Source of the DNA: a virus
UHGV virus genome: UHGV-0168749
Reading direction: 5' to 3' (one strand)
DNA: 12,524 bases
Notes under the pieces: model-generated
What the model saw: the letters and a program-made list of their open reading frames with translations, nothing else
Told to the model about the DNA's origin: nothing
Databases searched by the model: none
Made by a program: the position numbers and the translations under genes
Part shown: one piece after another, positions 30-12,524 of the stretch
Layout of the letters: the number at the start of each line of letters is the position of its first letter
Numbering within the stretch: the first letter of the stretch is position 1

Positions 30-31
30 CG

Positions 32-3000
32 TCAGAACAGTATGCAACGTACGATAACAAAGGCGGTTATACGTACAACACTACAAAACGCCGTTTTGCC
101 GTTACGTACAAAACCACGACGTTAAATGACTACTCCCTGTCGATGAAATACCGTATTCCTGGTATTTTCCCGAACATGGGAAGCATTAACCCAAATGAAC
201 AAATCGATTGGATGTTGTGCTACGCGAATGGCGGTGCAAGTATCCTTCGTCTTCAATTAAAGCAGCGTAAAATCTCTTTGCGCCTGACCGTAGCGTTAGG
301 AAGCGGCTCAACCGATTACGACTATACGCTAATCAACGGACTGACCGACAGCGAATTGAAAGGTGAGTTAACGTTTAGTGTTGTTCGTCAGCCTGGTAAC
401 GGTGTGTATGTTATCGAGGTGACGACTAACAAACAGACGATGGACTACACGTTCAACGTTGATAACCCACCATCCGAATTCTCAGCAGGTTATAGCAAAA
501 CAGATGTTGCGAAATGGTTGAAATATAAAACCAACGTTAATCTAAACTGGTGGGCGGCTGAAAACGATTATGCACAATTCCTTGCGTTACCTGGTGCGCC
601 AGACGCCGACGTAAGCAATGACGTTTATCAGCTGATTGTCAAATACCATCAGTTGGTGGAACAGCTTTACCGCAACGCACCAGCTCACGAGCACGTTACC
701 CGTAAAGATAACCCACACGTCGATACGTGGGGACCGATTCGTGCGTTAGAGTTAAACGGTATCGCGTCAGATGCTGCTTTGGCTTACGGGAAAACGAAAC
801 AACAGTTAACGGATTACGTTAACAGTAAATACCCGACGCAGGCAACACTGACAGCGCAGAATAAACTGCTACGCACCGCAGCTAACAAAACGGTTGACGG
901 AACTATCAGAACACTGCCAGGCTTTACGTCCTTTACGACGGAAGTTGATCCGGTGTCGATGTCTAAGTACGTGAACCCTTATTTTAGCGAAAGCTATGTT
1001 AGCAATGGTTACACGTATCATGGCGCACTTCGTTATACGGGAACGAAGAATGGATTTGGTACTTATTTTAATGGAGTACCTGCCAACCTGCAAGATATTG
1101 ACTTCATTGTCACCGGACGTAAAACAGCGTCAGGTAATGAAGCAGTCGGTATGGTTGGTTTACGCTTCTATGAAAATCCTGGTAGTAACTCTGGCAAATT
1201 CATTCAACTTACCGGTGAAGTTCTGTCAGGTCGAGTCAGTATCGGTTTACAACTGAACGGTTATGCTAATCCGCAGCCGGAAGTCCAATATGTTTCTCAA
1301 ATCGCCGATCCTGCAATACCTGACGATGATTTTACGTTACGTTTCCAATTAAAACGTACGGGGAACGTATTTGATATCGTTGTTACCGTGAATGGTAAGA
1401 CGTACAGCGCTCGTGTCAACTTCGTTAACATGGATGCTGCGCTAGAAGCGTTAGAGAACCAACATCACTTTAAAACGTTGATTAACAACGTTGCTGATAG
1501 TGTCAGCATTATCTCGCAAAACAAAGGTAACACGGTTACCATTAAGAAAGCGCCGGATGTTGTTGACGAGACCCGTTTAGGTGCTCAGTTTGCCGTTGAC
1601 CCGAAATCCATTAAGTTTATTGGCCAAGGTTCAACCGAAGTTAATGCAGGGAATAACCCCGTAACTTTCCAGGCAGGGACTAATCAGCTGGTATTGTACG
1701 CTGACGATCGTGGCTTGCAGTGGCGTGGTAAGAAACTTTTAGACCCCACCACAGTAGGGCCTTACCTACCAGGTAATACCGCGGGTGGAACAGGATTATT
1801 CTACGCAAACTCGACAGCAACGGTAACCATTACAGGTAACGGAATAAAAGCGTCACCGTTTGTGGCAACGTTTGTCCTCCCTACCGCAACGGATACGACG
1901 TCCTTAGCCGGATGGCAGTTAACCGATGAGTTCGGTACTGCGGAAAATCTGGCAGCGACGCCTGCGTTGATTACAAAACTCGATGCTGAGTTTACGGGTA
2001 AATTGGTCGCGGTAAAATCGTACATTAACGACATGCCGTTAACCAGCTCTATTACCATCGACAAAATCACCTTTAACCTAGGTAACGTTGCAAACACACC
2101 TGACGTCGATTTACCTATTTCTGTTGCACAACAAACAGAGTTGGATAAATATTCACCGAAGGTTCACCGCCACCCGTCAACAGCGTTTGGAGTGGAAAAC
2201 GCAACAACGGATAAACGCGGGTTAATTAAATTCGGATTAGCCGTCGATGATGCAACGCTGGCTTTAGACGCTAGTGTGGTGATGGATCAGACAGCTCGAA
2301 TTGAGAAGCTGGAAGCAACAGTAGGTAACGTAGATTCGGGTGCCCGAATTGACATCATCCGTTACGGTGAAACTGGGAACGACTTAATCGAAGTTACGGT
2401 AAAAGACAAGATACTGGTTACGTTACCCGCCACAACGTATTTCATTGGTGGGGAAACGTATCAAGTGCCGTTAATGACAGTAAACACTGCTGAGCGCTTT
2501 CCAAAACTGAATACGGAAATTGTTGCTGGGGTGTTTGTTGATATTGTCGATAACCGGGCGACTTATGTTATTCACGATAGTTACAGTCAAGCCGAAACGG
2601 ATACCATGACCCGTGTGGGGATGATTGGCGTCAACGATATCTCAGAAGTGTACTTAACCGAGTTGCGTAACGTGACCCGTTTAGGTGATTTCCGGGAATT
2701 GTCAGAACATATTGCTAACGACAATGCGCATATTCAGAGAAGTGCGCCACGTGCAGCTCTAGGTTTGCGCAATTTAACAGTGGGTGCGCCCTGCTGGGCT
2801 TCAGGCTTACAAGCAGTAACACGTGGTGAGGCTGATTGGCGATTTGCGATGGGGAATACGTATAAAGCACTCGACGGCGTAAAATACGATTCCTTAGCTT
2901 CGAAGTGGATATTTGATCCAAAGGGAGTTAGTGATAATGTTCATGGATTTATTCACAATCTTTTCCCGCTGTTCTCGAACGCAGGTGTTCGTGTAACTTG

Positions 3001-3787
3001 GGAAACGGAGAGTAACGCAAAAACGGGCACAGTGCTTGAAACGATTTTAGGTTGTTGGCGGAATAATGCCAATGAGTTTGTTCGCTTGTCTCTTTTAGTG
3101 ACAAGGGGCTACCGCTTAACTGACAGTAAGGGCGAATATTGTTACGCAGGTTTCGGGTTAAACTTCGCTAATGGGAAATCGGTTGTTCTTGGTTTTACAC
3201 CAACGAAGCGTGTTACACCTGCCCCTTGGAGTACATTACAACCCGATATCACATTTACCCACAGACGCGGCGCGAACAACGATGTGACGTTTAATGCGAC
3301 GTTAACACTAGCAGGAACGGTTTATACCATCGTTGTGTATTTGTCAGATGTAGATAAATACGTAAGCTGCACCGCAGCGGGCGGAACAACTCAGAAAATT
3401 TCGTTAACTGATCGTCTAGGTGAGTTAGATATTTCACCCATTGTTAACGATCCTTATACCCCTATCTATTACGGTTTAGGGGGACTTTATGACGACGAGG
3501 TACGCGCCAACCTCCGTACCACTGCTGATAGCATAACAGCAAATAAATCGTACGGAACGCTATTGGATTATATCGCTAACTATTCTGCATTAAACCGCGC
3601 ACGCCTCATTGAGACAGCTGGCCCAAGCTCAGATCCTGAGACGCTAAACGCGCTGGTAGCAAAAGAGTTTGATGATAATTTAGCCGATTATAACGCGTTA
3701 CCGATCCCTCCTTATCTGAACAAGGAGCGTGTCATGTCGTTCTTGGGTGAAAACAATAAACTCAACGCGGTGATTATTCGCGATTAA
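32..3787 (+). CDS. Large phage tail-fibre-like structural protein, probably 5'-partial (the ORF track starts it at the internal Met at 143)
   Basis: The reading frame is open from the first native base after the adapter (the only upstream in-frame stop, TAA at 20-22, lies inside the adapter). No Shine-Dalgarno precedes the ATG at 143 (upstream is ctactccctgtcg). Stop TAA at 3785-3787. Composition is T/N/G/V/Y-rich and it contains the box DLPISVAQQTELDKYSPKVHRHP...ATTDKRGLIKFG (nt ~2102-2238) resembling the conserved tail-fibre K-P-x-S...H-x-H motif. The product call is by motif recall, not a search. Confidence 0.7.
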   Translation, partial: SEQYATYDNKGGYTYNTTKRRFAVTYKTTTLNDYSLSMKYRIPGIFPNMGSINPNEQIDWMLCYANGGASILRLQLKQRKISLRLTVALGSGSTDYDYTLINGLTDSELKGELTFSVVRQPGNGVYVIEVTTNKQTMDYTFNVDNPPSEFSAGYSKTDVAKWLKYKTNVNLNWWAAENDYAQFLALPGAPDADVSNDVYQLIVKYHQLVEQLYRNAPAHEHVTRKDNPHVDTWGPIRALELNGIASDAALAYGKTKQQLTDYVNSKYPTQATLTAQNKLLRTAANKTVDGTIRTLPGFTSFTTEVDPVSMSKYVNPYFSESYVSNGYTYHGALRYTGTKNGFGTYFNGVPANLQDIDFIVTGRKTASGNEAVGMVGLRFYENPGSNSGKFIQLTGEVLSGRVSIGLQLNGYANPQPEVQYVSQIADPAIPDDDFTLRFQLKRTGNVFDIVVTVNGKTYSARVNFVNMDAALEALENQHHFKTLINNVADSVSIISQNKGNTVTIKKAPDVVDETRLGAQFAVDPKSIKFIGQGSTEVNAGNNPVTFQAGTNQLVLYADDRGLQWRGKKLLDPTTVGPYLPGNTAGGTGLFYANSTATVTITGNGIKASPFVATFVLPTATDTTSLAGWQLTDEFGTAENLAATPALITKLDAEFTGKLVAVKSYINDMPLTSSITIDKITFNLGNVANTPDVDLPISVAQQTELDKYSPKVHRHPSTAFGVENATTDKRGLIKFGLAVDDATLALDASVVMDQTARIEKLEATVGNVDSGARIDIIRYGETGNDLIEVTVKDKILVTLPATTYFIGGETYQVPLMTVNTAERFPKLNTEIVAGVFVDIVDNRATYVIHDSYSQAETDTMTRVGMIGVNDISEVYLTELRNVTRLGDFRELSEHIANDNAHIQRSAPRAALGLRNLTVGAPCWASGLQAVTRGEADWRFAMGNTYKALDGVKYDSLASKWIFDPKGVSDNVHGFIHNLFPLFSNAGVRVTWETESNAKTGTVLETILGCWRNNANEFVRLSLLVTRGYRLTDSKGEYCYAGFGLNFANGKSVVLGFTPTKRVTPAPWSTLQPDITFTHRRGANNDVTFNATLTLAGTVYTIVVYLSDVDKYVSCTAAGGTTQKISLTDRLGELDISPIVNDPYTPIYYGLGGLYDDEVRANLRTTADSITANKSYGTLLDYIANYSALNRARLIETAGPSSDPETLNALVAKEFDDNLADYNALPIPPYLNKERVMSFLGENNKLNAVIIRD

Positions 3788-3791
3788 GGAG
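3786..3791 (+). promoter_or_regulatory. Shine-Dalgarno (AAGGAG) for ORF2, overlapping the ORF1 stop codon
   Basis: Sequence gatTAAGGAGaattttttgATG: the ORF1 TAA (3785-3787) overlaps AAGGAG (3786-3791); TTG at 3798 and ATG at 3801 follow at 6 and 9 nt spacing. Confidence 0.75.
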
Positions 3792-3797
3792 AATTTT

Positions 3798-6700
3798 TTG
3801 ATGAAAGCGTATCCTTACGATCCTCGGGGGACGAAAGCCGAGAATCACTTCTTAGAGGAGCGTATCATCGGGTCAGAAAACAACAACGATCGGGTGGTGA
3901 TTTTGGATCATCGCCCGTTCTTTGAAAATCTGGTCGTTAAGCAGCCGGGTTCAACTACCCCACTGAGCCGTGGGGTAGATTACGAACTGCAATATCAGCT
4001 GACGGAACTGGATGACTCGGTAGCAGCCAACGTGTATTGTGGGGTACACCTTATCAACCCATCCATCAAAGGTTTAGTTACTTTTGAAGGACAAATGCTC
4101 GGTGGAACGTTTTACGATCCGTTTGTAGAAATTCTGGATGAGCTTGTAAAACATCTCAATAACCCGACTAGTGCGGATTGGTTGTTATTAGAAGGTCGTC
4201 CGTCGCTTTATCCAGCAACACCTGCTGCAACGTCTTGGGCAGATTTGCTGAATAAAAAATATCTTGCGTCTGCGGTTCATGATATCGAATTAAAAACCGA
4301 TGATGCAAACCAACTGATTAAAGATAAACTGGCCGAGGTTAAAGCACTCGTTGTTGCTCTGGGTAAAGAAATTCAAGCATTTAATTACCCAGCACATATC
4401 GCGGCAAAGAATCCTCATGAAACAACCGTAGCACAAATCGAAGCTCATCCGGTGAATCTCAAAACGCCGGATACCTTTATGGCTTACGGTTTACGTCTGA
4501 AAGCGTTAACGGAAGAACTAAAAGCATTCCGTTTACCACAATCGGTAGTTGACACCTATATTTCTCATTGGATTTCTGATGAGGTCTATGGGAATTTCAA
4601 CTGTACGGTGTCAGGAAACCGTGCACAATTCAGTTCTAAAAATGGTGAATCTGAAATCATTTTTGCGAACGATGGTTTTACGTTGAAGTCAAACGGTTCA
4701 GTTGTGTTGGCGGTCGGGCACTTGGAAGGAACAGGTGCGGGTCGTTACATACAGTGGCGTGCAGGTAAGAACACGTTGCGTATTGAATCAACAGGCGATG
4801 CCTTAGGGATGAATAAACTCACCTTAAACGGCAACCCGTTGCTTACAACGACTGCACTAATGGAATACCAACAAGACCCTGACGAAGGGACAGGTGGTAA
4901 TGACCCTGATGACACTAAAGTGTATATCGAGGGTCGCAACGGAATTAGCTTTACGGGTAAAGGTTCACGCGCTGACCCTATCGTAGGGGTTATCGACCCT
5001 CAAAAAGCGACTCTGACTGAAAAAGGCGTCGCTAAACTGAAAACCGGTAAAGGAACGGAAACAACGGGCGTTGCAGCAACACCGGGGTCACTGACACCGT
5101 ACTCAACGGACTTGTCCGGGTATGTGCCGAAAACGACGCTGCTAAACGGTAAGGCGATGAACGACGGTTCTCGCCAGATTACCAAAGCAGAGTTAGGATT
5201 GGAACATGCTGACAATACCGCCGATGTTGATAAACCGCTGTCCTCGGCTCTAAGTACGGCAGTTGAAGGACTTGCGGAAAAGAACCACCATCACGAGTGG
5301 TCAGAATTAGGCATTTATAAGGCTTCTCAATCCATTTACGGTATAGGTCGTTATGCGACTAACCAAAATGGCTTAGTCGAGGGACGGGCTGTAGTGCCTA
5401 ATATTCTCAAAGAACTTTCTGCAAGGCTTGAAGTTGTTGCCGCAGCGATTGCAAATGCGAAAGAAGGTACGGTAACAGATTTTGCTGCGGTACAAGGTGC
5501 GCAGTGGCGGTTTAATAGTCAAGGTACTGCTTTAACCGTACAGGATCTGAAAGTCTTTTATTTGTTTGATGGTAACAAAGACGAAGCTACCCTGACCGGT
5601 GCAATTGATCTTCAGACAACGCCAATGTTCAACTGGTTTTCGCCAAATAACCAGCTTGAAACTACCTGGCCGGAAGCAAAAGTTAGCAAAGGAACAGGAA
5701 TTACTTGGGACGGTATTGATGAACCACCGTTAATGGGCTATCACTCTGTGCCTGTTGGAAAGACAGCAACACAAATGGGTGATCAGTCTGTAATTACTGT
5801 TCTTGCTAAAGCTCGGGTCAAAGCGTACCAGTCTAAGCTATGGGTTTATGCTGCCGGTGGTGGCCCCGTAACCGTGTACATTAACGGTGTGCAAGTTGCC
5901 TCCGGTGAATCGCCATTATTAACTGTTTACGAAACTTCACCAAACGTCGAGAACTATGTTGTTGCAATAAAAGCGGAATGTAGCGACACGGCAAAATCAG
6001 CTGCGGTGCAGTTTGAGATATATGACGGTGATTACCCTGTATATTTCAGTGGTCCCGAAACACACGTAGAGTTGTTAGCCGATTTCGTCACAACACATGT
6101 TGGGATTCGTCATTATCTTTACGTTAACATGCTCACAGGTTCTCTGTATTCTCGTGCTGAGCCGATCGAATCAAACCAGGTTGATCCTGAGCGCGGTTTT
6201 ATCGGATACGTAGATGTTTACGCAGGCGAAAATTACGCGAATAAGACGGTAACTTTCGACACCACTTTCGACTTTGGTACAAGTGCAGAAATTGGCAACC
6301 ATGTGACCACGCGAAACGCCCACGGGTTAAAAGTGGTCGACTGGTCGCTGACAGATAACCCCAGATTACCGTTATTGAACCGCGCTATTCCCGAACCACG
6401 TGCGTTGGTTTATCGTAAGATGCTAACGGCGGGAAGTGGCGGGACTGCTGTAAGCTTGAGTCGCGGTTTGCTTACTTATTCGCATGGGCTAAATGTTAAA
6501 ACTGCTTTACAGCTAATTTTCTCGACCGAAGGTGCAACGCCGTATTGTTGGTTTACACCATTCAACCCTAAAGAAAATAGTGCCCCCACATTCGAAGGGT
6601 CGTTTGTTTTTGATGTTGATGATGTTGGCGGGACAAAAGCACTCACAGCAGCTCCAGATCTTATACTCTGTGCTAGTTCACAAGGTAGTTCTGTAGGACG

Positions 6701-7988
6701 TCGATACGTTCGTTTTAATCTTACGGATAAGACCTGCAAAGTGGGTGTTGGTACGGTGCGTACTAATGAGACGTGGTACAAAACGTTTGAAACAAACGAT
6801 GGGGTGATGTTGATGGAAACAGCAAATGAGACCGCTGTTTCTGCAACTACCAAAGACGTGTTATTTAATGGCGATGAAACTAATCCAGCAATTCTTGACC
6901 TTTTAGGTTGGGGTGTAAGCAAGGATAAGATTTCTCCTGTTCACGCCCCAAGGGGAATGATACGTTACCGTTATAATGTTCAAACTCGTGTCTTACGATT
7001 AGCACTTTCTTTCTCGCAGTTTAACACAACAGCGGTTAAACAACGCCAAGTAGAGTTCCAACTTCCGTTTGATTTGGTAGATTATTTTGCTGGCGATGGC
7101 GTTGGGCTGGCGTTTAGTGAACTCAGCGAGAAGTGTCGTTTGACGATTAGCCATGGTTTAATAGACCCGGTTACATCTAATATTGACATTGATAAGTATC
7201 ATTACTTGCGTGGCTTGTTTGAATCGTACGTAGATAGTTCTATCGGTCAGCTTTCGGATGCTCGTGATGCCGATTATGCCCAGACCGCAATAGACCCCGC
7301 ATCGTACGAGATTAAATCTGAGTTCCGTTTTACCGAAGCAATAGGTTTACCTCTGGGACAAGGTGTTGCTTCTTTGTCGCATGAAGGTCAACTACCTGCG
7401 CAGTTCTACGATCGTAAGTTAGCTCGCGGTGCTTTGGTTTCTCAGAACTCTACGTGGAATAACGCGTGGAGTACCACGTCGCCTGCATCAGATAAACATC
7501 GTGGAAATTTGATCTTGCGATTCGCACAGGGCGTTAGTAAAGCACATTATCGCATCGCGCGTGTGTCGGGAACGATTAAAAGCAACTGGCCAGGGAAAGT
7601 GATTATCGGTGATGCACAGAAAGATGCTTTCTTATCTGCAACTGACATCGTCGAATTTGCTTTGTCGACATCTTCTGATGTGGGTAAAGCAATAAGCTTA
7701 ACTCCCGTGGATCTACGGGCAGGCCAAGACCTTTATATCGTCCTTGAGTTGCCGGGCGACAACCCAGAGGGGTATGAGTTGAACTTCAGCTGCAATTTAG
7801 AAATCTTTGATGAAACCAATACTCGTCAAGATCAACTGAACGTGCAAAGTTTTGAAGTTCGTTCCGGCGATGAACAAGTGATGATAACAAAGCGTAATCC
7901 GTACCATATCACGAGCAAAGCGTGGAAATGGATTTTAGCTGTACTGAAACGTGAACTTAACGGTAAACAGTTAGGGGATCGCACTTAG
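3798..7988 (+). CDS. Large phage tail-fibre-like protein (~1396 aa) with a canonical fibre repeat and a His-triplet box; start may be the ATG at 3801 rather than TTG at 3798
   Basis: Uninterrupted ORF with a strong RBS and TAG stop at 7986-7988. It contains QKATLTEKGVAKLKTGKGTETTGVAATPGSL (nt ~5001-5090), closely matching the tail-fibre repeat type A-T-x-x-x-K-G-V-x-x-L...A-A-T-P known from lambda Stf and T4 gp12/gp34, followed by LGLEHADNTADVDKPLSSALSTAVEGLAEKNHHHEW (nt ~5196-5300). The C-terminal ~700 aa look like a different, globular, Cys-containing module. Confidence 0.8.
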   Translation: MMKAYPYDPRGTKAENHFLEERIIGSENNNDRVVILDHRPFFENLVVKQPGSTTPLSRGVDYELQYQLTELDDSVAANVYCGVHLINPSIKGLVTFEGQMLGGTFYDPFVEILDELVKHLNNPTSADWLLLEGRPSLYPATPAATSWADLLNKKYLASAVHDIELKTDDANQLIKDKLAEVKALVVALGKEIQAFNYPAHIAAKNPHETTVAQIEAHPVNLKTPDTFMAYGLRLKALTEELKAFRLPQSVVDTYISHWISDEVYGNFNCTVSGNRAQFSSKNGESEIIFANDGFTLKSNGSVVLAVGHLEGTGAGRYIQWRAGKNTLRIESTGDALGMNKLTLNGNPLLTTTALMEYQQDPDEGTGGNDPDDTKVYIEGRNGISFTGKGSRADPIVGVIDPQKATLTEKGVAKLKTGKGTETTGVAATPGSLTPYSTDLSGYVPKTTLLNGKAMNDGSRQITKAELGLEHADNTADVDKPLSSALSTAVEGLAEKNHHHEWSELGIYKASQSIYGIGRYATNQNGLVEGRAVVPNILKELSARLEVVAAAIANAKEGTVTDFAAVQGAQWRFNSQGTALTVQDLKVFYLFDGNKDEATLTGAIDLQTTPMFNWFSPNNQLETTWPEAKVSKGTGITWDGIDEPPLMGYHSVPVGKTATQMGDQSVITVLAKARVKAYQSKLWVYAAGGGPVTVYINGVQVASGESPLLTVYETSPNVENYVVAIKAECSDTAKSAAVQFEIYDGDYPVYFSGPETHVELLADFVTTHVGIRHYLYVNMLTGSLYSRAEPIESNQVDPERGFIGYVDVYAGENYANKTVTFDTTFDFGTSAEIGNHVTTRNAHGLKVVDWSLTDNPRLPLLNRAIPEPRALVYRKMLTAGSGGTAVSLSRGLLTYSHGLNVKTALQLIFSTEGATPYCWFTPFNPKENSAPTFEGSFVFDVDDVGGTKALTAAPDLILCASSQGSSVGRRYVRFNLTDKTCKVGVGTVRTNETWYKTFETNDGVMLMETANETAVSATTKDVLFNGDETNPAILDLLGWGVSKDKISPVHAPRGMIRYRYNVQTRVLRLALSFSQFNTTAVKQRQVEFQLPFDLVDYFAGDGVGLAFSELSEKCRLTISHGLIDPVTSNIDIDKYHYLRGLFESYVDSSIGQLSDARDADYAQTAIDPASYEIKSEFRFTEAIGLPLGQGVASLSHEGQLPAQFYDRKLARGALVSQNSTWNNAWSTTSPASDKHRGNLILRFAQGVSKAHYRIARVSGTIKSNWPGKVIIGDAQKDAFLSATDIVEFALSTSSDVGKAISLTPVDLRAGQDLYIVLELPGDNPEGYELNFSCNLEIFDETNTRQDQLNVQSFEVRSGDEQVMITKRNPYHITSKAWKWILAVLKRELNGKQLGDRT

Positions 7989-8025
7989 GACAGACTGCCT
8001 GCGGGCAGTAATGTGTCCGTAGGTA

Positions 8026-8064
8026 ACCCCTCCCTGTAAAAAGGGAGGGGTATCCATTTTATTT
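8026..8064 (+). terminator. Putative rho-independent terminator between ORF2 and ORF3
   Basis: Perfect inverted repeat aCCCCTCCCT (8026-8035) / AGGGAGGGGt (8042-8051) with a 6-nt loop GTAAAA, followed by a T-rich tract (atccaTTTTATTT, to 8064). The U-tract is offset ~5 nt from the stem, so strength is uncertain. A smaller hairpin ACTGCC-tgcg-GGCAGT lies at 7994-8009, just after the ORF2 stop. Confidence 0.5.
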
Positions 8065-8070
8065 AAAAGT

Positions 8071-8075
8071 AGGAG
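8071..8075 (+). promoter_or_regulatory. Shine-Dalgarno (AGGAG) for ORF3
   Basis: gtAGGAGtctttacgATG: AGGAG at 8071-8075, 8 nt upstream of the ATG at 8084. Confidence 0.75.
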
Positions 8076-8083
8076 TCTTTACG

Positions 8084-11000
8084 ATGCCGAGAGAAGACGC
8101 GGCGCTGTTTAACGGTACGTTAAATACGTCAACGTACCCTAACCGATTTAACGTGGTCATCCCGCCGGAAGGCCCCTTTTATCGTATCGGATTAAAGCTC
8201 ACTGTTGCTGACGAGTCCGCCGCCGGTGGCCGTCGTACCTTAATAGAAGGTCTGGACTACTATTTAGGTTATTACTTTAAAGAGCTCGCTGAGGCAGAAC
8301 AAGACCAAATTTACGGCGGGTTCATGTTACTGACTGCCACTGAGGTGGAATACGAAATTCTGGGTGTAGCGCGCCAGTACCGTATCCCACAATCGGAAAT
8401 TGGCAAGTATCTAGTTCGTACCGATTTAAAAGATCCGCGTAACGTGGATTGGTCCGAATTAATGGCGTATGCTCCTGTCATACAGCCTATTGACCCGCCT
8501 GCTAACTTAGAAGAAGCCCTACTCAGGGACGAAGTAGTAAAAGCATTAGATGATATTCGTAAAAAGATTATCAAACGTTCCACTGAACTGGATGCTGCTT
8601 TTAGCGAAGTTACGAATCTGATTTACGAAAACGGTAAGAAGGTTTTTGACGAAGAGCTTTATCAGCACCATTTGAACCCTAATGTTCACAACTACACGAC
8701 TGAAGACATTGGTGCACTGCCTGTGTTGGGGCGTGCCGTAGATGCGACAAAAGCTTTCAACAGAACGTTAGATGAACTCGCAACGTTGATGGGTTCTGCG
8801 GGAATTGAGCAGTCGGACGTAGACCAGTTGATGGGCCGTACACTCGGCACGGTTTATGGTCGTTGGCGTGCTTCAAACGGTAAAGAACTGGCGTTCAAAA
8901 CCGCAGGCGGTCATGTAATCAGTATCCGAAATGATAAGTGGTTGATTACGTCACCACAACCATTAGTGATTAAAGCTGACCAGGACAACAATGAATCAGG
9001 CTTAGCCGTTGAGTTCAGCGCTGGGTTGAACACCCTTTGGGTACACTCTGGCTCCGAGCAAGATGTTTTAGCGCCAGTGTATAACTCCGTGTATCTGGTT
9101 ACACCAGACATGGTGAACATGTACTTAACATCGGTGACGTTGCTGGAAGCTAATGCGTACTTCTCGTCTTCAGACACAGTGAAAGCGTACGGTACATCGA
9201 AACAATCCAACCCATTGACGTTAAATGCAAATATCCCTACGGCGTCTGAGTCGGTTTACGGATTGTTCTCTATTACGAATATCGCAACATCAGCTGCGTT
9301 GGGTACAGCAATATCCCAAAAAGCCGTTACTGAATTAAAAGACCGGTTAGACTTGTACGTCGATGATGATTACACCATTAACGGTAAAGGATTTGTTAAG
9401 ACCGGTGAGAACATGGTATTGACGTTAACGAAAACGGATTTCGGCATCGATAAAATGGACAATACCAGTCCGGCTAACAAACCAGTAACAAAAGCACTGA
9501 CAAATGTTTTAAAGAACAAAGCATTGTCTAACCACACCCACGTGTTTGGCGATTTGGATAATGTACCGATCGGTAGTGCGACGGTAGACGGCTTATTACA
9601 GTTGTGGGATGCTATAGACACTACTAATGATAAAGCGGTCACTTCGCGTCAAGGGTGGTTATTTGCGAAAGAGATCAAGAAAGTTACTGACAAACTGAAC
9701 ACTATTTTACCGGCTTGGACCGTAGGTGGTGCGAAGTTTGGTAACAAAAACTTTCTACCAATTCCGGCACTTGGTAACTATTCAGGCTTTACAAAGAACC
9801 AGTCTTACCAAAAAGGGGTTGTTGGTTATCAGCAAGGGAAGGTCTACTCGCTACGTAATGCTTCTAATGGCGTGCCGGGTACAGAAGCTATTTATTACGG
9901 TTATGCGGATATCAACTCGTCAAATGCGTTTGAAAATCCACAACAGACCTCGGTGAAATACCATCCTGTTGGACTGAGTAAGTATCCTGGTGTAACTTTA
10001 AAAGCGATTTTGATTGGTGGTCAGGAAGCGATCATTTGCCTGGGCTCCGACAATAACCGGTATTTGGTGCTGTTTAACGGTTCGATGGACCACGCCAAAC
10101 ACACCGTGGTTTGTCGTGTGACGATGCCTGTCTATCGTAACGGTAACCCTAGCGGAACCGTTGAACAAACTTGGAATCCGTGGCCAGAAGCCGACGATGT
10201 TGTGCTGGTTGATGATTACGTCTATCTTCTCCGTTCTACGGTGAATAACTCTGCTTATGCAGTGGCGGCTTGGCGTTTGCGTAAAGCTGATTTGTATACC
10301 AGCACCACGTTAGAATTTGAACGCGTAACATTAACAGGCGAAATGGGTCAATACGGAGATAACCTCTGTTTACGAATCGGTCAAAAAACTGAGGAGTCTC
10401 AGTCTGGGCAGTTCTTTACGTATTTTACACCAGAAGCACGCGCTAAATGGACTAACGGACATAACTTTGTTCACGGGCCGGAATGCAACCATGCTTGCGC
10501 GGTGCGTGACAGCGTGATCCGCGTGAACCATATGCCCACGGTATGGTTTGCGGCGGCTGATGGCTCACAAATTAACTTTCGTCAATGGGCAACAAGTTTT
10601 ACGATCGATACGTTGACGGGCAAAGTTACGTTAGAAGGTGCCGAACGCTTCCCCATCAAGGCTGATGCTACTACACTCTCGTTCGCGGACGGTTCAACTG
10701 TAGAAACTAGTCGCAAGTGGGGTGGTGGTCAGGCAAACAATCGTTGTTTTGCAACGTTTGCAAAACCTAACGGTACGGGAATGATGCTTTCCTGCTGGCA
10801 AGTTAACGACGCAGACCAAATGCCGAACGTTTCTATTAAAGGAACGCAAGGCAAAGAGCTTTTCGATTATCTGCGTTACGATAACCCGAACAATACTTCA
10901 GGTGAAGGGACTTTTACATGGGATAAAGGACGCGGTTCTATTTATACCATCGGTCTTTCTCACCCTGTCGGTATTGGAGGCTCGAACAAAGTCTGGTTGT

Positions 11001-12475
11001 CTAATCCACGTAACCGTTACACAATCGAAGTTGAGGTTGACCCGAACACGCCGTACAATGTACCTGGTTACAGCGGATACGGTCCAAATAACAACCGTCG
11101 CGAGGTTGATCCTACACTTTACGAGCAGTTGAGCTGTATGGCTGCGTGTATGACGCCAGAGGAGCGCCACGGCCAACTTAACGGTTGGTATCTAACAAAA
11201 GCAGAGACTTTCCCATACCGGAATATCTACGGTAATTTTGCGTTGTCTTCAGAACGCTTGACGTTAGAAGAAGCTGATCGCCAGAAGATGATTCGAATGA
11301 TTGTCGATGGTGCGCCGTCAGGCGAAGCTAATGGCTATGCGAATGAACGTATTAGCGCAGCACACCAAACAGGCAATGCGTTATTTGCTCTTTGGATGTT
11401 GGGTATTAACACCGTGTGCGAGTTTGACTTATTACAAGTTTCGTGCATGAAAACCTTAGATAATGGGCGTCGTATTCTCGATATCTATTACTTCATGGTG
11501 AGCCCATCTAAAGAGAATGGTTATCTACGTTTTAACTCCGCAACCTTTAAGCTGGTCGACTGGTTCTTAGATAAGGACTACGGTTTAAGTTATCAGTCCT
11601 TGAATGAAGAAGCGGGTAATAAAACACGACGTGTGGGTCAGCCTATCTTTGCTTCTGCGGATGGTGTTAACTTCGGTATTTGGTTACCGTATACGTTGAC
11701 GATTCGGAATATCGGTGATTTGAACGCATTAGGCTACGCCGCGAAATATACTTACGACCCTGGGTCGGGTTGGACTCGTGTTCCTGGTAAGTCTCAGTTG
11801 CGTCAGATGGCTCCTGCCCATAACCCAGAATCCGGGTGTTACATGGGCGCGGGCAGTTGGGATAAGATGGCATTGATTTATTCCAAGGCTGACCGTGTAT
11901 TCTGCTCGGGTAATGCGTACACTGCCGCAGAGTTTGTTAACGACACAACATTCTCAACAGGCGGTCAAGCGGTCATTATTTCCGGTGTGGAAACGGCGGA
12001 AGGTTGGATTCTGTATTTAACGGAAGAAGTTAAATTGGATTTTGGTAGCAGTAGTTATACGCTTCCAACGTGGTCGGTAGATTTAAGTAATCAATTTCCA
12101 TCTAACCACGCCAATCAAACCTTCTACGTCCACGGCGAAGTTGTAGGCTCAACTGCACAGTATCAGATAGGTCTGGAGCAGCTTCCTGATAATGCGACTC
12201 GGCTGTTCGTTGGAACAGTCACAACGGACAGCAAACGTATCGTTGATATCAATATCGATAAGGTGAAACGTCTTGGTCGTGTTCGTGAACTGGAAGAACA
12301 TGCCGCTGTGGTTGATCAACACGACGTAGCGGCGGCGTTTGATCGAAAAACAGGACCACTACAGACGCTGGTTAACCAACCGTTGAAAGCTCCTGCGGCA
12401 TCTACGGTAAAAGGTTCTGGTTATGTTGATGCACAGAAGTGGAATTCACTTTCTGCGCTGGCATATAAGCCAGGT
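8084..12475 (+). CDS. Large phage tail-fibre-like protein, 3'-partial (at least 1464 native residues; reading frame runs into the adapter)
   Basis: ORF with a good RBS. It contains the box MDNTSPANKPVTKALTNVLKNKALSNHTHVFGD followed by GSATVDGLLQLWDAIDTTNDKAVTSRQGW (nt ~9455-9675), matching the tail-fibre motifs D-N-T-S-x-x-x-K-P-V-S/T...H-x-H and A-S/T-x-x-x-G-x-x-Q-L...A-A/V-T. No stop occurs before the adapter at 12476; the last ~16 residues of the 6-frame track translation (LSLIHISEPTRP...) are adapter-encoded. The C-terminal half is unusually Cys-rich. Confidence 0.8.
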
Positions 12476-12524
12476 CTGTCTCTTATACACATCTCCGAGC
12501 CCACGAGACCCTAAGACATCTCGT
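12476..12524. other. Illumina Nextera read-2 adapter (reverse complement) plus 8-nt index and start of the P7-side sequence, non-biological
   Basis: 12476-12509 read CTGTCTCTTATACACATCTCCGAGCCCACGAGAC (reverse complement of the Nextera read-2 adapter), followed by the 8-nt index CCTAAGAC and ATCTCGT, the start of the sequence that follows the index in Nextera libraries. Confidence 0.9.

Follow-up and report, generated by a model that had tools for sequence, protein, structure and literature searches.

Does the first open reading frame of this locus (ORF1) begin at the ATG at position 143, as its ORF track has it, or does the DNA begin inside a longer gene? The window (the whole stretch of 12,524 nt that was analysed) carries three ORFs. 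An earlier note, made from the letters alone, held that ORF1 is probably 5′-truncated, that the true protein is probably longer than 1214 aa, and that the Met at 143 is likely internal. All three statements hold: in a longer scaffold that is identical to the native DNA of the window, the gene encodes 1440 aa and the ATG at 143 is one of its internal codons. It is nearly certain that the ORF1 call (143-3787, 1214 aa) is artefactual, the contig having stopped partway through a gene, and that the true product is 1440 aa long; no evidence against truncation of ORF1 was found. The case comes down to an artefact of adapter at a contig end, within a gene family that is already known, and a complete copy of the gene is publicly available.

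Adapter sequence at both ends of the window

The window opens with the letters cggcagcgtcagatgtgtataagagacag. Its bases 1-29 exactly match the 3′-terminal 29 nt of the Illumina Nextera read-1 adapter (TCGTCGGCAGCGTCAGATGTGTATAAGAGACAG), and bases 11-29 are the 19-nt Tn5 mosaic end (AGATGTGTATAAGAGACAG); the first native base is therefore base 30. At the 3′ end, the adapter runs in the order of the mosaic end's reverse complement (CTGTCTCTTATACACATCT), CCGAGCCCACGAGAC, an index (CCTAAGAC) and ATCTCGT. Exact adapter thus stands at the contig ends, and homology stops exactly at the junctions; in particular, the alignment to a relative with 93.4% nucleotide identity (L002) spans exactly bases 30-12475. 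Table 1 lists the features of the window.

Table 1. Positions of adapters, genes and signals in the 12,524-nt window.
Feature	Position	Strand	Basis or remark
Illumina Nextera read-1 adapter, non-phage DNA	1..29	.	exact adapter match; L002 and L007 alignments open at base 30
ORF1 5′ segment raised in the earlier note, coding: last 2 nt of codon 189 and codons 190-226	30..142	+	homology; identity to L007
gp170-like gene (ORF1), 3′ 3,758 nt	30..3787	+	stop TAA 3785-3787; homology, phrog_7557 at E = 0, L007
ATG taken as start in the ORF track, internal codon 227 of 1440	143..145	+	homologue residues; no Shine-Dalgarno
ORF2 ribosome-binding site AGGAG, overlapping the ORF1 stop codon	3787..3791	+	9 nt before ATG 3801
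ORF2, 1395 aa, only complete gene of the window	3801..7988	+	SPN3US gp169 orthologue; phrog_8078 at E = 0 over full length
Terminator-like hairpin, 10 pairs (7 G-C) then a T-run, between ORF2 and ORF3	8026..8051	+	consensus scan only
ORF3, SPN3US gp168 orthologue, 3′-truncated, 1464 native codons	8084..12475	+	phrog_7449 at E = 0 over full length; L002 and L007 alignments end at 12475
Nextera read-2 adapter	12476..12524	.	adapter match

ORF2 is the sole complete gene of the window, and its exact protein was therefore used for a look-up, which returned two public contigs that encode it. One is the window contig itself (ENA ERZ1026973, NODE_388; labelled L008), which comes from a metagenome assembly, has a coverage of 5.41 and is recorded with gene calls at 143-3787 (1214 aa) and 8084-12514 (1476 aa). 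The other (L007) is a 17,315-bp scaffold (ENA ERZ28629076, sample SAMN06164670), in which positions 4743-17188 correspond to window positions 30-12475, with 12,446 of 12,446 bases identical and no gap. The alignment ends exactly at both adapter junctions, and the scaffold extends beyond the match by 4,742 nt on the upstream side and by 127 nt on the downstream side. An exact 44-nt string from the window start had no match in the viral contig collection. Further, a megablast search of window positions 30-4000 against the phage collection gave a 224-nt match only, at the ORF1/ORF2 junction, to Erwinia phage pEa_SNUABM_29; no close phage genome is deposited in that collection.

Adapter read-through at contig ends is a known artefact of assembly and annotation. 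The window resembles it in having Nextera adapter at both ends, low coverage and adapter stop codons that bound the terminal ORFs, and no difference was seen. That the contig end might be a physical genome terminus was considered and rejected, since the longer scaffold and all relatives run past the junction and adapter stands at either end.

The start of ORF1 and the ATG at 143

In the longer scaffold, ORF1 occupies positions 4178-8500. Its frame stays open for 565 bases beyond the window's first native base, up to an ATG at 4178 that is preceded by an AGGAG with a 6-nt spacer and has an in-frame TAG two codons upstream, and residues 190-1440 of the encoded protein are identical to the window translation. 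Because the frame starts at 4178, the window lacks 188 codons and 1 nt, which makes its ATG at 143 codon 227. The earlier note had proposed to check for truncation by mapping to a more complete sequence, and this check gave the outcome that truncation predicts. Homologues place the start equally far upstream. In particular, a protein search found about 90 homologue clusters of 1440-1441 aa with 80-94% identity, to whose residue 190 the first window residue aligns without a gap, and in NZ_CP173450.1 and NZ_CP134650.1 the orthologues annotated by NCBI's PGAP have 1441 aa.

The frame 2 translation of the window start is GSVRCV*ETASEQYATYDNKGGYTYNTTKRRFAVTYKTTTLNDYSLSMKYRIPG, and the ORF1 frame is open over positions 32-142, or 37 codons, before the ATG. 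The sole in-frame stop upstream is the TAA at 20-22, which is adapter-borne and not phage sequence, as it lies inside the adapter. The earlier description of a frame that is open from the first native base, with a fibre-like composition rich in Y, T and N, is accurate: these three residues make up 17 of the 37 encoded by the segment (46%, against 22% in the whole protein). The chance of 37 stop-free codons at the base composition of the window is about 0.12, so that the open frame by itself is weak evidence and not significant; the case for truncation rests on homology and on the identical longer contig, not on the open frame. Moreover, the DNA of the segment is 100% identical to positions 4743-4855 of the longer scaffold, and the residues that it encodes are identical to residues 190-226 of the homologue P0001. 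Codon differences between the window and four relatives over positions 32-142 are mostly synonymous (6 synonymous and 0 non-synonymous in L002, 2 and 0 in L004, and 12 and 3 in each of L003 and L006), as is typical of a coding region under purifying selection.

Immediately upstream of the ATG at 143, the 15 nt at positions 128-142 read gactactccctgtcg and, as had been claimed, contain no Shine-Dalgarno sequence; none of GGAG, GAGG, AGGA or AAGG occurs even in the 20 nt upstream, and a Shine-Dalgarno-like 4-mer is likewise absent from the 20 nt before codon 227 in each of seven loci. In contrast, AGGAG precedes the true ORF1 start in all seven, and this architecture of ATG and AGGAG is common to five other relatives and SPN3US. 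The canonical AGGAG sites that had been set against the bare ATG are also present, before ORF2 (Table 1) and at positions 8071-8075, 8 nt before the ATG of ORF3.

These observations bear on whether the ATG at 143 could be a genuine internal start, used in addition to the upstream one and yielding an isoform of 1214 aa without the putative N-terminal anchoring module, which we regard as very unlikely. Codon 227 is an ATG in the window and in five of the seven loci examined, and it is GTG, a possible start codon, in L005; but it is GTA in SPN3US, and of 115 full-length homologues 107 have Val at this position, 7 have Met and 1 has Ala, so that no start is conserved at this codon. Further, the conserved block whose alignment is collinear from residue 190 has residue 227 in its middle, and the internal start would go without the ribosome-binding sequence found at the true start and at the starts of ORF2 and ORF3. 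There is a similarly slight chance that the change from Val to Met at codon 227, carried by a minority of the lineage, might create a weak internal start, and with it an anchor-less 1214-aa form beside the 1440-aa protein. Such a form, if it existed, could be soluble and might serve as a decoy or in assembly; neither a ribosome-binding site nor conservation of the Met supports it in the sequence.

A further possibility is that the gene is really shorter or split in this genome, through an upstream frameshift, nonsense mutation or rearrangement, and that a product of 1214-1251 aa is real. Shortened calls do exist in the family, since homologue clusters P0005 (1366 aa) and P0008 (1374 aa) begin at internal Mets. 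However, the window frame stays open as far as the first native position, the differences in the segment are mostly synonymous, and the longer scaffold, identical over 12,446 native bases, has an unbroken 1440-codon frame, which refutes a shorter gene if that scaffold represents the same genome; we consider such a gene extremely unlikely. It is just as improbable that the contig is chimeric, its parts linked by adapter, and that ORF1 does not belong with the genes next to it: the contig does carry adapter, so the reads were not cleaned, but the adapter stands at the two extreme ends only, no internal adapter or break in collinearity was found, window positions 30-12475 align collinearly and in a single piece to L002 (93.4% identity), L003 (76%) and L007 (100%), and the gene order is that of SPN3US.

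The truncation of ORF1 by the contig end would have come about as follows. Nextera reads would have been left untrimmed, and at a coverage of about 5x the assembly would have passed from phage DNA into adapter and stopped, at both ends. With the adapter TAA falling by chance in the ORF1 frame, the gene caller would have seen a closed frame, taken the TAA as the upstream boundary and chosen the first ATG after it, at 143.

Orthology to SPN3US gp170 and the missing N-terminal module

A tblastn search with ORF1 retrieved SPN3US-like jumbo phages (Seoulvirus, Erwinia Asesino-like phages and others), all at less than 60% identity. The SPN3US orthologue is YP_009153464.1 (RefSeq tag ACQ60_gp096), a 1237-aa 'virion structural protein'. 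The two genes that follow it encode proteins of 1376 and 1727 aa, and the order agrees with that of ORF1-ORF2-ORF3; by size and position the SPN3US triplet is gp170, gp169 and gp168. The order of the triplet is shared by SPN3US, L002, L003, L004 and the longer scaffold L007, as are its upstream neighbours, a divergent 420-aa gene and a DUF1471 gene.

BLASTP aligns ORF1 to gp170 in two parts (602 and 419 bits), with 66% identity over window residues 1-306, beginning at gp170 residue 190, and 44% identity over window residues 453-1251; both proteins end in ...IIRD. Taken as a whole, the two are only about 50% identical, and the full-length protein of the longer scaffold exceeds gp170 by 203 aa (1440 versus 1237), the extra stretch covering approximately residues 495-700. 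A comparison of this insert of about 200 aa with the domain that starts at window residue 1 gave E = 0.067 by BLASTP and, by hhalign, a probability of 58% with E = 1e-4 over 52 columns. ORF1 matches phrog_7557 with E = 0 and 1445 bits.

In the phiKZ-like Salmonella jumbo phage SPN3US, the large tandem-encoded proteins gp168-170 make up 'Paralog family C', candidates for baseplate or tail-fibre proteins that were found in purified virions by mass spectrometry, are absent from a tailless mutant and are similar to phiKZ gp131 (Ali et al. 2017, PMC5694885). By its orthology to gp170, ORF1 would likewise be a candidate baseplate or tail-fibre protein, in agreement with the fibre-like composition noted earlier. 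PHROGs places the ORF1 family under 'head and packaging', whereas the SPN3US data point to the tail. Pfam finds no family in any of the three ORFs. Sequence searches of the PDB with the full-length ORF1 orthologue, ORF2 and the ORF3 orthologue found no relative (the best E-values, 0.034-0.8, belong to unrelated proteins) and retrieved no gp131 entry.

The residues that the window lacks form a conserved N-terminal module that begins MAVV.DPH...; the window copy of ORF1 is without residues 1-189, the longer scaffold has the full gene, and the loss is a truncation of the contig and not of the genome. Over these 189 aa, SPN3US gp170 has the same module with 70% identity, which is the level found in Seoulviruses among annotated phages. 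A search with the first 457 residues against 1.84 billion representative proteins gave 349 matches in proteins of 137-2488 aa, nearly all of which cover only query residues 1 to about 165. Among the matches listed, the matched stretch begins no more than a few tens of residues from the N terminus. A sample of the module-bearing proteins matches PHROGs named tail protein, tail fiber protein and minor tail protein, and one sampled protein ends in a Peptidase_S74 fibre-chaperone domain. The phiKZ-like Pseudomonas phages (such as PA7, OMKO1 and SL2) have a 'minor tail protein' or 'tail protein' that shares the N-terminal module of about 160 aa at about 28% identity; the module is the only part of these proteins that was matched, and the likeness of the family to gp131 is known from the published description. 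Separately, five phage records with 80-90% identity to the N-terminal query were absent at E <= 1e-30 and are probably short partial matches; the list in which they stood also has matches of 12% coverage, such as H72 and H73.

An AlphaFold model of the module, built with 42 diverse sequences, has a pLDDT of 96-98 over residues 1-130 and predicts a beta-sandwich followed by helices. Foldseek with this model returned nothing at E < 0.05, and in a profile search of the PDB the module matched no more than a short W..V...P..FPP repeat, which belongs to 'Tail collar fibers gp4' (9d93); a literature search on PDB entry 9D93 found nothing relevant. Because its position at the N terminus is fixed and the parts downstream of it are variable, the module probably anchors the fibre to the baseplate. 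The 189 residues missing from the window would then be the part that attaches a fibre or baseplate protein to the virion, and the variable, mosaic remainder of the protein would face the host.

Neighbouring genes and source lineage

The three genes of the window are paralogous, with cross-matches among phrog_7557, phrog_8078 and phrog_7449 and a shared N-terminal phrog_2163; when their N termini are aligned, P-F-F/Y, G-x-D-Y and W are conserved. ORF3 is cut at the opposite end of the window, where its apparent stop, the TAA at 12512-12514, lies inside the read-2 adapter. Its orthologues in L002 and SPN3US have 1727 aa, and ORF3 therefore lacks about 263 C-terminal residues. The C-terminal end of a fibre is usually its receptor-binding end. 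Of the two calls on record, the 1214-aa one thus omits the conserved N-terminal module and the 1476-aa one omits that C-terminal stretch, and both are bounded by adapter stop codons. The value of the finding lies mainly in annotation hygiene, as adapter-bounded products without real termini can mislead domain, host-range or clustering analyses.

The window is otherwise an ordinary piece of a tail-fibre and baseplate gene cluster from a lineage of jumbo phages that is related to Seoulvirus and is known already from bacterial assemblies. Its close relatives sit on contigs of 220-227 kb in assemblies of Salmonella, E. coli and Shigella isolates, and two complete circular 'plasmid' records carry the locus, from E. 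coli (NZ_CP173450.1, 221,873 bp) and Enterobacter ludwigii (NZ_CP134650.1, 222,441 bp). 'Bapsvirus' is a proposed jumbo-phage genus of the Chimalliviridae, drawn from bacterial assemblies, with genomes of about 220-226 kb that are syntenic with Seoulvirus but distant from it (PMC12768965). The close relatives are like it in size, in their Salmonella, E. coli and Shigella hosts and in a limited similarity to Seoulvirus with conserved synteny, whereas the window itself comes from a metagenome assembly. These properties are carried by relatives at 76-94% nucleotide identity to the window, the comparison being with the published description of the genus, and a source phage in this lineage of about 222 kb is consistent with the proposed 'Bapsvirus'.

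Conserved sequence upstream of ORF1 and the layout of the putative fibre genes

In L007, the identical public scaffold that carries ORF1 complete, a conserved block precedes the true ORF1 start, and it recurs in the same place in the related loci L001-L006 (see table). In particular, each of the seven loci, that of the Salmonella jumbo phage SPN3US among them, has exactly one copy of its 11 nt core, ATAGTATGAAC, placed 22-30 nt 5′ of the true ATG; the 19 nt form, ATAGTATGAACTCGACGCC, is present in six of the seven, and L005 carries a 1 nt insertion. Across these loci, the proteins flanking the block share only 50-70% identity. The block, a candidate fibre-operon promoter, contains TATG, the core of phiKZ late promoters.

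Further downstream, the gap between ORF1 and ORF2 is just 13 nt, and two hairpins lie between ORF2 and ORF3, in window 7990-8060, an arrangement that suggests either two transcription units or attenuation ahead of ORF3. In the mechanical ORF list, ORF2 begins at TTG 3798; the codon right after it, ATG 3801, is the start chosen by gene callers for this contig. It has an AGGAG 9 nt upstream and yields a protein of 1395 aa, matching the calls in L002 and L007.

Coordinates of features in and around the fibre genes (window numbering unless stated)
Feature	Coordinates	Description
Conserved block	L007 4138-4156 (outside window)	~30 nt 5′ of the true ORF1 start; same place in L001-L006
Small hairpin ACTGCC-TGCG-GGCAGT	near 7994-8009	between ORF2 and ORF3
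Terminator-like hairpin	8026-8051	strong, 10 pairs, followed by a T-run; between ORF2 and ORF3
ORF3	8084-12514 (as called)	stop TAA 12512-12514

Variation within ORF1 and its homologues

Comparison of window 30-3787 with L002 and L004 shows that ORF1 is a mosaic, which suggests that related phages have recombined within their fibre genes. For example, L004 differs by 0-2 nt across positions 30-700, and its identity is just 85.6% across the aligned window 30-6662. For L002 the overall identity is 93.4%, and its ORF1 protein diverges most from that of the window around ORF1 residues ~340-480. Moreover, ORF1 contains ~203 residues (window ~950-1560, ORF1 residues ~306-510 in window numbering) that SPN3US gp170 lacks. 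This insert, which may be a domain duplication, has weak collinear similarity to the domain starting at window residue 1: BLASTP gives E = 0.067, and hhalign gives a probability of 58% with E = 1e-4 over 52 columns.

Two homologue clusters of the ORF1 protein are shorter, P0005 at 1366 aa and P0008 at 1374 aa, and start at internal methionines, which correspond to residue 75 (P0005) and residue 67 (P0008) of the full-length sequence. Because P0005 is located on a 222-kb contig, its short form may stem from a genuine frameshift, or the contig may be circularly permuted and broken within the gene.

Contig 3′ end and phage lineage

Positions 12476-12524, like the 5′ end of the contig, are Nextera adapter, comprising the mosaic-end reverse complement, CCGAGCCCACGAGAC, the index CCTAAGAC and ATCTCGT. 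The ORF3 stop codon falls inside this adapter; ORF3 is therefore 3′-truncated in the window, with 1464 native codons versus 1727 aa in its orthologues.

The phage lineage, to which the window and its relatives L002-L007 belong, is absent from the GenBank phage collection searched, where the best protein identity is ~50%. It is common on contigs of ~220-227 kb from isolate assemblies of Salmonella, E. coli and Shigella, and two circular records deposited as 'non-mobilizable plasmids' also carry it, one from E. coli (NZ_CP173450.1) and one from Enterobacter ludwigii (NZ_CP134650.1). Carrier-like persistence has been reported for lytic jumbo phages (PMC12768965), and these contigs and 'plasmid' records are consistent with such persistence and with the proposed genus 'Bapsvirus' (PMC12768965).
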